Origin: Calditrichia bacterium
GTDB lineage: Bacteria > Calditrichota > Calditrichia > RBG-13-44-9
Assembly (NCBI GenBank): GCA_027039625.1
Contig: JALWDQ010000633.1
Coordinates: 1-33,851, forward strand
Direction: 5' to 3'
DNA: 33,851 bases
Part shown: piece by piece, positions 3,369 through 25,857 of the stretch
Position numbering within the stretch: position 1 is the stretch's first letter
How the letters are laid out: every line of letters begins with the position of its first letter
Made by a program: the position numbers and the translations under genes
The notes under the pieces: generated by a model
Databases searched by the model: none
Told to the model about the DNA's origin: nothing
The model's input: the letters and a program-made list of their open reading frames with translations, nothing else

Positions 3369-4466
3369 GTGAATACGGAAAGGCGACATATTTTTTATGC
3401 CGTGCTGAATATGGGGTTAGGGCACGCCACGCGCAGTTTACCAGTGATTCAGGCGCTGTTGCAGCAAGGCTATCGGGTGACGGTGGGGAGTTCCGGACGG
3501 GCGCTGATATTTTTGCGGCAGGAACTTCCGGAAGCGCATTTTCTGGAGCTTCCGGACTACAATTTGACTTACTCCGAAAAAGGGGTACAACCTGCGGCAC
3601 TGCTGCTGCGGCTTCCCGCTTTGATGAAGAAAATTCGGGAAGAACATCACGTTTTGCAGCAGTACCAGCGTCGGTTTCCTCTACATGGAGTTATTTCGGA
3701 CCATCGCTATGGCTGCTATCTCCCGGGATTACCTTCGTATTTTCTCATTCATCAGTTGCGGTTCATCGCTCCTGCTCCCTTTCGCCGTCTGGAAGGGGTG
3801 GGTGTGACGTTTAACCGCTTTTTTGGGAAGCGCTACGGGGCAGTGCTGGTACCGGACGAACGCAATTCGCCGCAGAGCGGTGGCATCCTGACGGGCAGAC
3901 TAACTCGGGTGAAAAAGAGTATCCCAATTTATTTTACCGGCATTCTCTCCAGTTTACCGGTGGAAACAACCGCAGGAGCACCCATTGATGTGCTTATTTC
4001 CATTTCCGGTCCCGAGCCACAACGCACGATTCTGGAAAAAATTGTGCGGAGGCAGCTTGGGGAGATTCCCGGTCGGAAAGTGGTTTTGCTGGGAAAACCG
4101 GAAGAAACCTCTCCGGAGCATTTACCCGATGGCACGGTGATTTATCCTCACCTCTCCCGTCACCGCATGGGCGAATTGTTCAACCGCAGCCAGCTAATTG
4201 TGAGCCGTTCCGGTTACAGCACGGTGATGGAGCTGGCGGAACTGGGAAAACGCGCTCTGTTTATCCCCACCCCGGGGCAAACGGAGCAGGAGTACCTGGC
4301 CTGGCGCTACCGCAAGCACGGCTGGTTCCATGCTGCCAGTCAGTTTGGATTGAAATTGGGCGAAGAAATTGCCCGGGCAAGGCAGTTTCCGGGCTTCCCC
4401 CGGCGGTTTTCCACCCGGCAGTCTGTTCAGCGAATTCTGTCGCTATTAGAAAAAGAACTTGAATGA
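3369..4466 (+). CDS. GT-B fold glycosyltransferase (GT1/GT28, MurG/MGT-like)
   Basis: GTG start. N-terminal LNMGLGHATRS motif typical of MGT/GT28-like enzymes. C-terminal SRSGYSTVMELAELGKRALFIP nucleotide-sugar binding motif. Confidence 0.7.
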   Translation: MNTERRHIFYAVLNMGLGHATRSLPVIQALLQQGYRVTVGSSGRALIFLRQELPEAHFLELPDYNLTYSEKGVQPAALLLRLPALMKKIREEHHVLQQYQRRFPLHGVISDHRYGCYLPGLPSYFLIHQLRFIAPAPFRRLEGVGVTFNRFFGKRYGAVLVPDERNSPQSGGILTGRLTRVKKSIPIYFTGILSSLPVETTAGAPIDVLISISGPEPQRTILEKIVRRQLGEIPGRKVVLLGKPEETSPEHLPDGTVIYPHLSRHRMGELFNRSQLIVSRSGYSTVMELAELGKRALFIPTPGQTEQEYLAWRYRKHGWFHAASQFGLKLGEEIARARQFPGFPRRFSTRQSVQRILSLLEKELE

Positions 4467-4467
4467 A

Positions 4468-4640
4468 AAATTCCAAATTACAAATCCCAAATAACAAAAG
4501 ACAAATTCCAAAATCCAAATTCCAAATGTCAAAAAAACCGAGGCGATCGCAACGAGCGCAGCGAAAGCTCAAATTCCGGATAACAAATTCCAAATCAAAA
4601 ACAACAAAAAAACGAACTCCACATCACAAATCCTAAATGG
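4468..4640 (+). repeat. degenerate heptanucleotide tandem array 1 (consensus AAATTCC)
   Basis: In-phase heptads aaattcc/aaattac/aaatccc/aaataac/aaaagac/aaattcc/aaaatcc/aaattcc/aaatgtc/aaaaaaa occupy 4468-4537. A 33-nt insert (4538-4570) interrupts the array, which resumes at 4571-4640. Confidence 0.85.
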
Positions 4641-4681
4641 TTTAACATATTCTTTTTTTCCTAATTCAATCATTATTTTCC

Positions 4682-4734
4682 ATTCGTCCTTATTCGTGTT
4701 ATTCGTGGTTAAGTGCTTTTTTGTGTGATTCGTG
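4682..4734 (+). repeat. ATTCGTG heptamer cluster 1 (iteron-like)
   Basis: attcgtc at 4682; attcgtg at 4692, 4701 and 4728. Spacing is 10, 9 and 27 nt. Confidence 0.85.
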
Positions 4735-4802
4735 GTTAATGATTACTGGGAGGCGGAGGAATTGAACAAGCCTTATTGCCTGGCTCTCTTGAGGTGAGCC
4801 AC

Positions 4803-4845
4803 ATTCTGTCATTCTGAGCGGAGCGTTAGCGGAGCGAAGAATCTC
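4803..4845 (+). repeat. short dispersed-repeat-like module (gtcattctgagcggagcg..ggagcgaagaatc)
   Basis: Internal direct repeat agcggagcg x2 (4817-4825 and 4829-4837). It resembles the 'cattctgagcgaagcgaagaatc' type of intergenic repeat that yields junk ORFs (..LRMTE..) in many environmental genomes. Confidence 0.5.
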
Positions 4846-4922
4846 TTCTACATTACATGGAATAATCTTTCTTCGTATCAAAATAATACAGCTTGAGATG
4901 GTACTCTAAAATTATCAATACG

Positions 4923-4978
4923 AAATTCTAAACTACAAATCCCAAATTTCCAATCCCAAACAACAAATTCCAAATTCC
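4923..4978 (+). repeat. degenerate heptanucleotide tandem array 2 (AAATTCC-like)
   Basis: Eight in-phase heptads: aaattct/aaactac/aaatccc/aaatttc/caatccc/aaacaac/aaattcc/aaattcc. Confidence 0.85.
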
Positions 4979-5025
4979 GATAATTTAATAGATTCTTTCC
5001 GAATCTAATATTTTCCTTATTATTA

Positions 5026-5092
5026 ATTCGTGCATATTCGTGTGATTCGTGGTTAATAATTCGTGGGTAAGTTTCCATCCGTACAATTCGTG
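5026..5092 (+). repeat. ATTCGTG heptamer cluster 2 (iteron-like)
   Basis: Exact attcgtg at 5026, 5036, 5045, 5059 and 5086. Spacing is 10, 9, 14 and 27 nt. Confidence 0.85.
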
Positions 5093-5165
5093 GTTTTATT
5101 GATTCCGGCGATCTCGATAATTTTAAAACCCAATTCAAAATTCTTAATTCAAATTTCAAAATTAT

Positions 5166-5248
5166 TTCTGTCGTCCTTACAGGACTTAAAATGATGGGTG
5201 GAATTCACCTTCCCATGGCTGAAGGCCATGGGCTAAATTCTGTCGTCC
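5166..5248 (+). repeat. hairpin-containing repeat module bounded by an 11-nt direct repeat
   Basis: ttctgtcgtcc occurs at 5166-5176 and 5238-5248. An 8-bp hairpin pairs cccatggc (5212-5219) with gccatggg (5225-5232). A small hairpin gtcct/aggac lies at 5173-5185. Confidence 0.6.
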
Positions 5249-5354
5249 ACTCCGTGAACTCATCCCCTGCCAGCCGATAGTTTTTAAATCCTAAGAATCT
5301 ATTCCGACCACCTGGAGTATCCGGTTAAAAAATATCTTTTCTAATTATTGAAAC

Positions 5355-5471
5355 AAATCCCAAACAACAAATCCCAAATCACAAACGAAATTCCAAACCC
5401 CAAATCCCAATTAACAAAAAACAAATTCCAAGTCTCAAATAACAAGCATCAAATTCCAAATTCCAAATGAT
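5355..5471 (+). repeat. degenerate heptanucleotide tandem array 3 (AAATTCC/AAATCCC)
   Basis: About 16 heptads, with one 5-nt irregular unit at 5383-5387. The array ends ...aaattcc/aaattcc/aaatgat. Confidence 0.85.
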
Positions 5472-5511
5472 TAAGAGAATTTTTACACAATCTAATCATT
5501 TCTTTTTTTTC

Positions 5512-5564
5512 ATTCGTGTTTATTCGTGTGATTCGTGGGCAAATATCAATTCTTTTAATTCGTG
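5512..5564 (+). repeat. ATTCGTG heptamer cluster 3 (iteron-like)
   Basis: Exact attcgtg at 5512, 5522, 5531 and 5558. Spacing is 10, 9 and 27 nt, identical to cluster 1. Confidence 0.85.
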
Positions 5565-5692
5565 GTTTGAATTTTTAGAAGCTTTTGTACTCGCAAAATC
5601 AGTAACCCTCCAGCATGGGGTTTCGGGAAGAAAGCACCAAAACCATATTGGTTTTTTTCGTATTGTTTTTAAAGGGTGAATTATTTATTTTT

Positions 5693-5729
5693 GCGTGGCA
5701 TCCGTAAAAGAATGCCGCTTTATTTTTTT
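5693..5729 (+). terminator. terminator-like hairpin plus T-run just upstream of gatC
   Basis: gcgtggcat (5693-5701) pairs with atgccgc (5712-5718) with one bulge, followed by tttattttttt. Confidence 0.4.
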
Positions 5730-5749
5730 CTGAAAAAATACTTAAGATC

Positions 5750-6036
5750 ATGAAAGTATCCTTGCAGGAAGTGGAGCATCTGGCGCACCTAGAGGCGCTG
5801 GAATTTACTCCGGAAGAGAAGCAAAAAATTGCCACTGAACTGGAACGCATTCTGGAATATGTGCGTCAGCTGGAAGAAGTGGATACCACCGGCGTTGAAC
5901 CGCTGGAGCATCCCGGTGGCCCGGTGCAGGCTATGCGCCCGGATGAACCTCAACCTTCTCTTCCAGTAGAAGAGGCATTACGCAATGCTCCCGATCGGCA
6001 AGGAGGTTTCTTTCGGGTTCCCAGGGTGATTCGTAA

Positions 6037-6040
<4 letters not shown>
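5750..6040 (+). CDS. gatC: Asp/Glu-tRNA amidotransferase subunit C
   Basis: 96 aa. Typical GatC sequence (VEHLAHLEALEFTPEEKQKIATELERILEYVRQLEEVDTTGVEP). Confidence 0.85.
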
Positions 6041-24177: not shown

Positions 24178-25857
24178 ATGAAAAAACGTGTGTTAATTAT
24201 TCTGTTAATGGTTGCTCTGTCCTTCCCCCTCCTGGCGGGAGAAAGTATCCCTCCTTACCACTGGGTGTGGAATTATTTGAACTATTTGAAGGTAGCCGGG
24301 TATCTTCCGGAACTGGATATGACCAATGGACCGACGGACCGGGAAGTAATAGCTGGCTATTTGTTACATATTGACCCAGAAAAAATTCCAGAAGGTTCCC
24401 GGGAGTGGAAGATGGTGCGCATATTGTTTCGTGAATTTGCCGAAGAGATAAAAGAAATTGGGAATTCGGGGGGCGATCGCTCCCGGGAATGGTTACAGAA
24501 AATCCTGGAGCGTTTGCAAATGGCTGTGCTTCCGGAAACGGTGCGTTCACGGGTACGCTTCGGAGCGTTTGGAATGGTAACCCCTCGTTACAAAAACGAG
24601 GATGTGACCACGGATTTTCAGTTTCACACCCGATTGGGATTGCAATTTGGAAAACGGTTTACCCTGTATAATAATATGAAAGTGTTTAATCATCTACCAA
24701 AGGGCTATATTGGTAAAACTACTCGTAAGCTGTATGCCTACACCGAACAAGCGTATTTGCAAATAAACGGGGGAATTTTTCGTTTCAAAATCGGTCGGGA
24801 TTACCTGGAGGTAGGACCCGGGCGTACCGGGAAGCTTTTGATGAGTGCGAACAGCCGTCCCTTCGATATGTATCACGCTCAGTTTGGTAAACGCTATTTT
24901 CATTTTTCGTTCTGGGGAATTATGCTGGATCCCCGTCCCATTGTGCAGGAGGAATTGAAACAGTACGCTCCGATTGCCCGACGTTACCTGAATGGCCATC
25001 GCCTTTCGGTGAATATTAAAAACCGTTATTTTGTAGGGGCTTCGGAAGTGATGGTATATGGCGGGCCCAATGCGAACTGGGATCTGGCATTTATGAATCC
25101 GTTTACTATTTATTACGGGCACCAGGCGAATGGACCGTATGCGCCTGGAAACGTGCTTTATTCTCTGGACTGGGATTTGTATTTACCGCACCAGGTAGAA
25201 CTTTATGGAGAGTTTTTGGTAGATGATTTTCAGGTGGATAAAAAGGTTCCGGGTGATCTGGAACCCAATGAACTGGGACTGCTGGTTGGGGTTAATTGGG
25301 CGAATCCTCTCCGGTGGGCCACTTCCATGCTGGGAACAGAATATGTTCAAATTCGCAATCGCACCTACAATGCCCCGGTGAATGATTGGGAAAAGTATCT
25401 TCACCGCAATCAGGTAATTGGATACTACCTGGGAAATGATTTTAAACGCTGGAGTATTCAACTGGAGAAGTGGGTGCACCCCGATCTCTCGGTTAAAGGA
25501 TTTGCTCATCTCATTCGCAAAGGGGAAGGAACGGTGGAAGGGGAGTTTAATACGGATTACATGAATTACACTGTAGAAGAAGGATATCACGAACCCTTCC
25601 CCTGGGGAATTGTGGAACGCCACTGGCAGTGGGGTGTGGCGCTATTTTATCGTCCCCATCCTCTGGCAAATATTACCTTGAATATTGCTTACAACGATTT
25701 CCATAATTACCAGCACGTAACCGGTGCTACGCATTCGGAAATAAGCGCTTCGGTAAACCTGTGGTTACAATGGGATACAGTATTCCGTACTTCCCGGCTG
25801 GAAATCGATCGCTGGCAACTGGAGTTCGATAATCCGGATTCGGAGGAGGAAAAGTGA
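24178..25857 (+). CDS. secreted/outer-membrane protein, possibly Wzi-like capsule assembly beta-barrel
   Basis: Signal peptide and a beta-rich, aromatic-rich 559-aa ORF. The N-terminal ...YLNYLKVAGYLPEL... resembles Wzi-family N-terminal regions. The family call is weak. Confidence 0.45.
   Translation: MKKRVLIILLMVALSFPLLAGESIPPYHWVWNYLNYLKVAGYLPELDMTNGPTDREVIAGYLLHIDPEKIPEGSREWKMVRILFREFAEEIKEIGNSGGDRSREWLQKILERLQMAVLPETVRSRVRFGAFGMVTPRYKNEDVTTDFQFHTRLGLQFGKRFTLYNNMKVFNHLPKGYIGKTTRKLYAYTEQAYLQINGGIFRFKIGRDYLEVGPGRTGKLLMSANSRPFDMYHAQFGKRYFHFSFWGIMLDPRPIVQEELKQYAPIARRYLNGHRLSVNIKNRYFVGASEVMVYGGPNANWDLAFMNPFTIYYGHQANGPYAPGNVLYSLDWDLYLPHQVELYGEFLVDDFQVDKKVPGDLEPNELGLLVGVNWANPLRWATSMLGTEYVQIRNRTYNAPVNDWEKYLHRNQVIGYYLGNDFKRWSIQLEKWVHPDLSVKGFAHLIRKGEGTVEGEFNTDYMNYTVEEGYHEPFPWGIVERHWQWGVALFYRPHPLANITLNIAYNDFHNYQHVTGATHSEISASVNLWLQWDTVFRTSRLEIDRWQLEFDNPDSEEEK

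Follow-up and report, generated by a model that had tools for sequence, protein, structure and literature searches.

The DNA upstream of gatC in a Calditrichia metagenome-assembled genome (MAG) carries three clusters of one short heptamer, ATTCGTG, and this locus raises the question whether the clusters control the neighbouring genes or belong to something more widely spread. The window analysed is 33,851 nt of contig C633. Its source genome, a 4.16-Mb Calditrichota MAG of 1026 contigs with 8.6% contamination, is labelled G000, and the related genomes are labelled G001 and so on. The PyrG protein of G000 was ~80% identical to that of Calditrichaceae/Caldithrix MAGs.

Through direct reading of the sequence and pattern search, we found exact ATTCGTG on the plus strand at 4692, 4701, 4728, 5026, 5036, 5045, 5059, 5086, 5512, 5522, 5531 and 5558, and a single variant copy, ATTCGTC, at 4682. 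These positions bear out the original prediction for this DNA, which had described twelve exact copies and one ATTCGTC in one orientation over 4682-5564, steps of 10 and 9 nt among the first three copies of each cluster, further steps of 27 nt (4701 to 4728, 5059 to 5086 and 5531 to 5558) and an extension to ATTCGTGG in seven copies. Each copy at +27 closes a degenerate doublet as its second unit, as in ATTCTTTtaATTCGTGG and TTTTGTGtgATTCGTGG. The whole window contained 14 copies of ATTCGTG against 4.76 +/- 2.1 in 100 dinucleotide shuffles, none of which reached 14, and 12 of the 14 were packed into 883 nt on a single strand.

All three clusters represent a dispersed repeat with about 140 intergenic sites in G000. 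The arrays are not conserved at gatC, and their terminal module is an arm of heptamer-array elements which are found across phyla and also bracket genes of the GxxExxY family. The best explanation, which we hold to be probable, is that the clusters are copies of a non-coding selfish repeat with phased docking sites, and not a regulatory site of gatC.

Copies of the array in the G000 genome

The strict module was defined as ATTCGTG-N3-ATTCGTG-N2-ATTCGTGG and an array as at least two heptamers. The original prediction had proposed a genome-wide search for the module and had named its absence elsewhere as grounds for giving up the idea; the search gave the opposite result, with 111 strict modules and 138 arrays in G000, many of them at contig ends. 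The module is everywhere in this genome, therefore the clusters belong to a dispersed repeat and not to a gatC operator. By crude open reading frame (ORF) calls, six of the 111 strict modules lay inside ORFs, and the arrays were evenly split over four gene-orientation classes of co-directional, convergent and divergent intergenic regions (10-13 each), so there was no sign of a promoter or terminator role. Such a role at the locus itself was also rejected, since promoter-like and terminator-like sites were not in excess in a consensus scan of 4300-5850.

Copy-to-copy similarity stopped sharply at +25 to +35, right after ATTCGTGG(TTAA), while to the left it faded between -10 and -450, across a linker, a tandem heptamer tract and sometimes hairpin modules of repetitive extragenic palindromic (REP) type. 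We therefore place the array at the right-hand end of a mosaic repeat. A linker-only search for units, meant to reduce ascertainment bias, recovered mostly the seed copies. Sites anchored on ATTCGTGG numbered 305 in G000 against ~126 expected, and at these sites, free of circular selection, the two upstream heptamer positions carried 0.35-0.73 bits/column compared with 0.2-0.26 in the spacers. The arrays fit a pattern of 2-4 identical CRCRRAK-type heptamers with a 9-10-bp period and an outer CCAC/GTGG end. Several flavours coexist (CACGAAT 114, CACAGAA 9, CGCAAAG 5 and ACAGGAT 4), which argues against one host protein reading all of them.

In G000 the copies have a single arm. Of 90 modules, 1 had an inverted arm within 250 nt (control 1/95), none of the 138 arrays had an inverted partner within 600 nt, and all 23 neighbouring pairs of arrays pointed in the same direction. 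Despite the one-armed state, three perfect heptamers were retained in 114 arrays. By a strict detector, a phased CAAAT tract ended within 120 nt upstream on the same strand in 41 of the 138 arrays, and an inverted downstream tract was seen at only 2; reciprocally, of 131 phased CAAATYC tracts in G000, 45 precede an ATTCGTG array by no more than 120 nt, in constant relative orientation. This one-armed, same-orientation amplification coupled to CAAATYC tracts is an unusual feature of G000.

At gatC the relatives keep the gatC-kdsB-pyrG string, the upstream genes differ, and the spacers of 93-580 nt before gatC are not homologous; one relative (locus L005) has its own two-armed CACGAAT element in this spacer. 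In G001, a MAG of the same genus (92% complete, 120 contigs), a 190-nt spacer separates a Fur-like gene from gatC, upstream of which no ATTCGTG arrays were found. Homology between the two genomes starts at about position 5652 of the window, 85 nt downstream of the last array, so that a leader of roughly 100 nt is shared. The idea of a local control array for the gatC-kds-lpt genes thus did not hold: the module is genome-wide, was not found in G001, and lies outside the shared leader. The geometry of cooperative binding sites that had been proposed for the clusters stands in part. The arrays do look like phased recognition sites, with heptamer columns more conserved than spacers and with non-complementary spacers in two-armed copies, and it is the local iteron, operator or partition interpretation that is not supported.

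Related arrays in other genomes and around cassette genes

In a comparison set of 61 relatives, with the reversed pattern as control, the strict module was present in 19 genomes from several families of the class, and the reversed control gave 0 throughout; G000 itself stood at 110 modules in this count. In G001 we found neither a strict module nor an ATTCGTG-NN-ATTCGTGG doublet, and the doublets numbered 337 in G019, 99 in G041 and 22 in G040. G040 is a single contig of 4,978,541 bp, in which each copy lies within a sharply bounded element of ~125 nt (L087-L106; ~36 copies) resembling a miniature inverted-repeat transposable element (MITE). This element has 20-nt terminal inverted repeats, ATGAGTyCAsTmTAAAAAss, and the ATTCGTG triple adjoins one of its ends, the opposite arm containing an inverted, degenerate version of the array; some copies show possible target duplications of 4-5 nt, inconsistent between copies. 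The G019 doublets belong to a ~200-nt MITE, in whose long inverted ends they occupy a subterminal position, and in G041 short two-armed copies without a gene are common. A terminal inverted arrangement is thus found in G019, G040 and G041. A repeat of ~40-50 nt at C664:5437-5489 matched at least 15 places in G001 at 80-96% identity. G001 thus shares certain repeat modules, though not the ATTCGTG arrays.

Across phyla, a scan with an exact 27-mer in one genome per species gave at least 120 stretches. Among the matches listed were many Flavobacterium isolates, Chitinophagaceae, Saprospiraceae, Prevotellaceae, Planctomycetota, Acidobacteriota, Chloroflexota, Verrucomicrobiota, Lentisphaerae, Sulfuricella, Geobacteraceae and others. 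Typically two arms stand in inverted orientation, with GCCACGAAT-nn-CACGAAT-nnn-CACGAAT separated by 1-150 nt of loop from ATTCGTG-nnn-ATTCGTG-nn-ATTCGTGGC. By one relaxed criterion, 64 of the 93 cross-phylum modules listed had an inverted arm within 250 nt, compared with 9/91 in the wrong-side control. The loops of the two-armed copies were unrelated and the spacers of the two arms non-complementary, with the heptamer itself conserved. No recurrent neighbouring protein was found at 80 cross-phylum loci beyond three small ORFs, and an apparent 1.46-kb element at locus L132 was rejected as two elements around an aminotransferase gene.

The same arms occur around genes of the GxxExxY family (TIGR04256/PF13366). 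G000 contained one intact gene of this family at C877:190-534 on the minus strand (PF13366 E=1.9e-41; TIGR04256 E=1e-42). Its 5' arm, taaCCACGAATtaCACGAATgaCACGAAT, composed as CCACGAAT-CACGAAT-CACGAAT, lies directly behind the stop codon of the upstream ORF and just ahead of the start of the gene, and no 3' arm is left at this gene. A second copy, truncated by the end of contig C467, has three ACAGGAT units before it. The family was present in 54 of the 61 relatives with 1-33 copies each, and about 25 of the 30 loci examined in relatives were bracketed by inverted phased arrays. The arms of Calditrichia relatives and of other phyla are CCAC-type on the 5' side and GTGG-type on the 3' side with a 9-10-bp period. 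The heptamer varies among cassettes (CACGGAG, CACAGAG, ACAGGAT, CACGGAT, CGCAAAG, CACGAAA and CACGAAT), and the two arms of one cassette agree. Arms of CACGAAT/ATTCGTG were found on GxxExxY genes in G013, G032, G054 and G041, with a near variant in G019, and the 3' arm in G054, ATTCGTGtcATTCGTGtaATTCGTGgttaa, is essentially the module of the window. The three array-richest genomes (G000, G019 and G041) each have a GxxExxY gene with matching or near-matching arms. Comparison of each 5' flank with the reverse complement of its own 3' flank gave a median score of 14 against 8 for other cassettes; the own-pair score exceeded the 95th percentile of cross-pairs in 17 of 29 cassettes, and the own partner ranked first in 13.

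GxxExxY is a very large family, with at least 8000 matches at E < 1e-10, and the nearest homologues (~65-66% identity) were in Verrucomicrobiota, Kiritimatiellae and Planctomycetota. An AlphaFold model (pLDDT 93) comprises a minimal PD-(D/E)XK core of 125 aa, for which the best PDB matches were Cas4 SSO0001 (E = 5e-4, TM 0.59), lambda exonuclease and RecE. The invariant residues are E30, D70, E80-x-K82 and Q94-xxx-Y98, which we take to correspond to RecB/Cas4 motifs I-IV. With these residues conserved in the modelled core, the protein is probably an active nuclease. In the literature searched, GxxExxY, PF13366 and TIGR04256 had incidental mentions only, PF13366 being given only as 'unknown, multiple transfers' (PMC3424549), and no paper or other published description of the exact array sequences was found.

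One GxxExxY cassette with CACGAAA/TTTCGTG arms, on Logan contigs SRR11928830 and SRR35531994 (L310/L311), is placed between brxC and a pglX-like methyltransferase gene of a bacteriophage exclusion (BREX) operon, and begins immediately after the brxC stop codon.

Possible nature and spread of the arrays

In the reading we favour, the heptamers are probably docking sites phased along one helix face, to which a multimeric, element-specific factor would bind in trans, and the arrays would spread as cis-acting ends of non-autonomous derivatives of GxxExxY-type cassettes. Judged from the one-armed arrays of G000, the acting factor would need neither an inverted partner nor a hairpin, and the one-armed copies do argue that a hairpin is not required. 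Because of this state, the G000 arrays are a variant and not a typical member of the heptamer-array elements and GxxExxY cassette arms. The three tandem units upstream of gatC would then be repeats that piled up where a rearrangement made a junction, with incidental influence, if any, on gatC. The GxxExxY protein itself could be the heptamer reader, although the evidence on this point is indirect and mixed.

A number of observations weigh against this explanation. Classical two-end transposition cannot explain the spread of G000 copies that have no second arm, and no known transposase recurred next to the arrays. At the three G000 array sites compared with G001 (the C633 window, C664:4440-5725 and C715:~24300-24800) neither an empty site nor a target-site duplication could be shown, because all of them were synteny breakpoints, as was every site examined when other relatives were included; this suggests that repeat pile-ups mark or promote rearrangements. 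In G040 no long pair of the terminal repeats of the MITE-like element was seen that could represent an autonomous version, and an autonomous insertion sequence with these repeats was rejected as a candidate. The arrays of G040 and G019 are internal to other terminal repeats, hence they are possibly passengers. Genes and arrays also do not go together in every genome: G040 has 22 arrays, yet its sole GxxExxY gene has CAGGATT-type arms; G001 has two GxxExxY genes and no ATTCGTG arrays; G003, G017 and G028 have arrays without a GxxExxY gene. The closest GxxExxY homologues use other heptamers (CACGAAA in the BREX cassette, CGCTAAA, CGCGAAT/CGCTAAT, and CGCAGAT in opposite arm orientation), and the protein is a bare Cas4/lambda-exo-like core with no separate DNA-reading domain.

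A further point on the same side comes from PF05635, the four-helix-bundle family annotated as '23S rRNA intervening sequence (IVS) protein', which was found in 57 of the 61 relatives (loci L313-L342). These genes are likewise bracketed by co-varying inverted arrays (14 vs 8; 19 of 29 above the 95th percentile of cross-pairs). Their arms are mostly contiguous tandem 6-8-mers such as GCTGAAA, CTGTAGG, CCAATAG, GGCAGT and others. The G000 gene, at C957:4546-4860 on the minus strand, has TATAGGGTT upstream and ACCCTATAT/CCCCTATTT downstream, and the TATAGGGTT/ACCCTATAT arrays are the second most common phased flavour in G000. The architecture parallels that of the GxxExxY cassettes with an unrelated cargo. 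Since unrelated genes have analogous co-varying arms, two or more cargo families may use the arms as a general vehicle, or favour them as a place to land, and the arms are perhaps not the recognition site of the nuclease. The GxxExxY protein as the reader is thus weakened by the PF05635 arms, the mismatches of genes and arrays, the other heptamers of its closest homologues and its bare core.

A broader proposal is that the arrays are the cis-acting ends of an undescribed class of mobile cassettes shared across phyla, whose cargo is a Cas4-like GxxExxY nuclease or else a four-helix-bundle protein, and whose movement relies on a mechanism unrelated to known transposase families. We put it forward tentatively, as a possibility that is more doubtful than not. 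If it were true, the ~140 one-armed copies of G000 would show that a single array end suffices for amplification, which would point to one-ended, replicative or recombination-templated spread.

Arms of this kind might instead matter only by pairing, in single-stranded DNA, a cruciform or mRNA, where three 7-bp helices with small internal loops would form a stem that serves in processing, stabilisation or recombination; the copies in the window would then be half-elements left by decay. The prevalence of two-armed copies elsewhere (64/93) fits such a role, as do their scores as long hairpins in Rfam noise hits, and the GxxExxY and PF05635 arms co-vary whatever the unit sequence, so no sequence-specific reader would be needed. 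However, inverted partners are nearly absent from G000, yet most of its arrays keep three perfect heptamers, and the G000 unit formed no RNA or DNA fold better than shuffled sequence on either strand (unit 3, 5346-5575; z = +0.55 and -0.15). No gathering-score match to Rfam covariance models was obtained over the arrays, whether those of the window or those of canonical two-armed copies. Pairing alone also leaves the identical heptamers within an arm and the drifting spacers unexplained, and we consider this alternative unlikely. A conserved host protein, nucleoid-associated or MraZ-like, could also read direct repeats of 10-bp period and thereby organise or regulate many loci. MraZ boxes are TGGGN-N5 in E. 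coli and AAAGTGK-N3 in Mollicutes; the 10/9-bp phasing and the GTGK core resemble them, the exact heptamer is conserved across phyla, and a composite unit lies ~480 nt upstream of mraZ on contig C44. But neither G001 nor many complete relatives yielded any of the arrays, several heptamer flavours occur in one genome, and promoter-bearing intergenic regions are not favoured. We rated the idea of an MraZ operator low, as ATTCGTG repeats are missing from the proximal mraZ promoter and the composite unit upstream is a distant one; a host reader in general seems quite improbable.

Local control at gatC, in which the clusters would be a cooperative iteron, operator or partition region for replication, partition or the gatC-kdsB-pyrG-kds-lpt string, was suggested by three direct-orientation clusters within 900 nt immediately upstream of the operon. 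It is largely refuted, and we give it almost no credence: identical arrays occur at ~140 other places with no link to gene class or orientation, the spacers of G001 and of other relatives are not homologous to this one upstream of the shared leader, and no rep, par or regulator gene stands beside the arrays of the window, whose flanking ORFs are the glycosyltransferase gene and gatC. The order of three units in tandem could also have been made by mis-joining of repeat-ended contigs in a fragmented MAG. Indeed, an exact-protein look-up for variants of the same species returned only assemblies of the same population, which break within repeats; the join across 5193-5416 is unique to the present assembly, and Logan contigs break inside arrays 1 and 3. 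On the other side, an ENA scaffold and a Logan contig of this population match the window at 100% up to 5193 and from 5416 on. The ENA scaffold carries the glycosyltransferase gene with units 1 and 2 contiguous, and another carries unit 3 with gatC, both 100% identical. Each array therefore exists independent of the 5193-5416 join, and an artefact is a very improbable explanation of the tandem arrangement.

Taken as a dispersed selfish repeat, the arrays share with the MITEs Correia/NEMIS, Nezha and Chunjie their small size, lack of coding capacity, many copies at unrelated intergenic loci, patchy presence between close relatives and breaking of assemblies; in G019 and G040 they even lie within terminal inverted repeats. 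They differ in the missing second arm of the G000 copies, for which neither a target-site duplication nor a transposase partner was found, and in that the arms consist of 10-bp-phased identical heptamers, the same heptamer recurring across phyla where all else is different. The only gene with matching ends was the GxxExxY gene, which is not a known transposase. REP sequences, bacterial interspersed mosaic elements (BIMEs) and the REPIN-RAYT system (REP doublets forming hairpins and REP-associated tyrosine transposases of the Y1/HUH type) are alike as high-copy intergenic mosaics, with a single-copy gene flanked by repeats that are also found without the gene. Here, however, there are phased direct heptamers in place of a short hairpin with a GTAG-type head, and the associated gene encodes a PD-(D/E)XK protein (GxxExxY) and not a Y1 transposase.

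Iterons and phased operator arrays (OmpR/PhoB-type, MraZ boxes) likewise consist of direct repeats about one turn apart on one helix face, with conserved heptamers and free spacers. The present arrays differ from them in occupying ~140 dispersed loci with no adjacent rep or regulator gene and no conservation at orthologous promoters. Iteron units are of 17-22 bp, compared with a 7-mer with 2-3-nt spacers here, and iteron origins have one or few clusters per replicon beside a rep gene and an AT-rich unwinding element or DnaA boxes, compared with 138 arrays on many contigs. Subterminal arrays of transposon ends (the TnsB sites of Tn7, Mu, IS21, plant Ac/En-Spm) also place short direct motif copies inside the terminus, inverted at the two ends; in our case the motif is of 7 bp, there is no known cognate transposase, and certain relatives have the arrays enclosed by other terminal inverted repeats. 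The cyanobacterial short tandemly repeated repetitive (STRR) heptamers resemble the CAAATYC tracts as contiguous intergenic tandem heptamers, and the PF05635 arms of the relatives are built likewise. This likeness covers the tract only, since the ATTCGTG arrays have 2-3-nt spacers, and the host here is a Calditrichota bacterium.

If the selfish-repeat reading holds, a very common repeat is without a published description in the literature searched, and GxxExxY/TIGR04256 and the 23S-IVS four-helix-bundle family, both very large groups of small proteins of unknown function, become tied to a defined DNA architecture, which would make their function testable. The G000 variant constrains any mechanism, since ~140 copies were amplified without a second arm. 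For annotation, such repeats break MAG assemblies, inflate intergenic regions (1.28 kb here vs 93-580 nt in relatives) and lay at synteny breakpoints in three of three places checked, and they should not be read as operators of their neighbours.

Organisation of the gatC spacer

The clusters occupy a 1283-nt gap between a glycosyltransferase-like ORF (3369-4466) and gatC (5750-6040). On the plus strand this gap comprises three composite units, each with a tandem CAAATYC heptamer tract followed by a ~40-nt linker ending in a T-run and then by an ATTCGTG array, with other repeat modules interposed between the units.

Unit 1 begins with two CAAATYC-type tandem runs of period 7 at 4468-4640, interrupted at 4538-4570 (Tandem Repeats Finder (TRF) rows 4468-4527 and 4474-4536; direct-repeat families D1-D3). 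Its linker, 4641-4681, ends in a T-run that also appears in the anchored consensus of 111 copies as tTaTTTTT at -8..-1. Array 1 (4682-4740), seen by sequence, pattern search and direct repeats D4 and D5, reads ATTCGTC-N3-ATTCGTG-N2-ATTCGTGGTTAA and is followed by the degenerate doublet TTTTGTGtgATTCGTGGTTAA. Between units 1 and 2, at 4741-4920, lies an unrelated repeat module (…gtcattctgagcggagcg…agcgaagaatc…) which also follows arrays on contigs C13, C352 and C726.

The tract (4921-4980) and linker of unit 2 cover 4921-5025 (TRF rows 4923-4978; direct repeats D1 and D2). Array 2, at 5026-5097, was recovered by sequence, pattern search, direct repeats and the genome-wide module search, and it contains a strict triple module, ATTCGTGGGTAAG and the degenerate doublet ATCCGTAcaATTCGTGG. 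REP-like hairpin modules of a separate repeat family (tgtcgtccttacaggac; cccatggctgaaggccatggg; gtcgtccactccgtgaac) follow at 5098-5350; like modules flank RAYT-like Y1 transposase genes on C747, C504 and C442. Unit 3 has its tract at 5351-5470, with linker and T-run up to 5511 (TRF rows 5351-5468), and over -330..+54 it showed 70-84% identity with units on C154, C471 and C995. Array 3 (5512-5567), with a strict triple module plus GGCAAATA and the degenerate doublet ATTCTTTtaATTCGTGG, was found by sequence and pattern search, and its sharp boundary at +25..+35 makes it the right terminus of the repeat unit. The conserved leader that belongs to gatC itself, 5652-5749, is outside the repeat and marks its limit (BLASTN homology with G001 starts at query 2284, window 5652).

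The reverse complement of CAAATYC (ATTTGGR/ATTTGTG) matches ATTCGTG at 4-6 of 7 positions.

In the leader region of gatC (5626-5749), a hairpin, gcgtggcatccgtaaaagaatgccgc, followed by a T-run stands ~40 nt before the start codon; possibly this is an attenuator, or else a terminator for whatever lay upstream. A weak L20_leader-like Rfam match scored 23.7 bits vs 58.7.

The CCCA...TGGG and GTCC...GGAC hairpin modules of the spacer also flank three intact RAYT-like Y1 (PF01797) genes of G000, and they look like a separate REP/RAYT-type system in the same intergenic pile-ups. A link of this system to the arrays was rejected, as the flanks of the three intact Y1_Tnp genes (C747, C504 and C316) were CCCA...TGGG hairpin modules and those contigs had no ATTCGTG. 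Within these modules an Acido-Lenti-1 Rfam match at 5212-5260 was sub-threshold (31.7 bits vs a 37-bit cut-off). Multi-copy ORF families of G000 were likewise rejected as partners, none being tied to the arrays. The only clearly multi-copy protein family, unlinked to the arrays, has six copies of at least 70% identity on C188, C391, C42, C61, C786 and C828, and is presumably the Rpn/PDDEXK_2 'putative transposase' family with a repetitive GIQKG tail. At C442:~480-500, downstream of a truncated RAYT-like gene and amid REP-like hairpins, we found a short perfect palindrome, cccacgaattcattcgtggg, made of one CACGAAT and one ATTCGTG.

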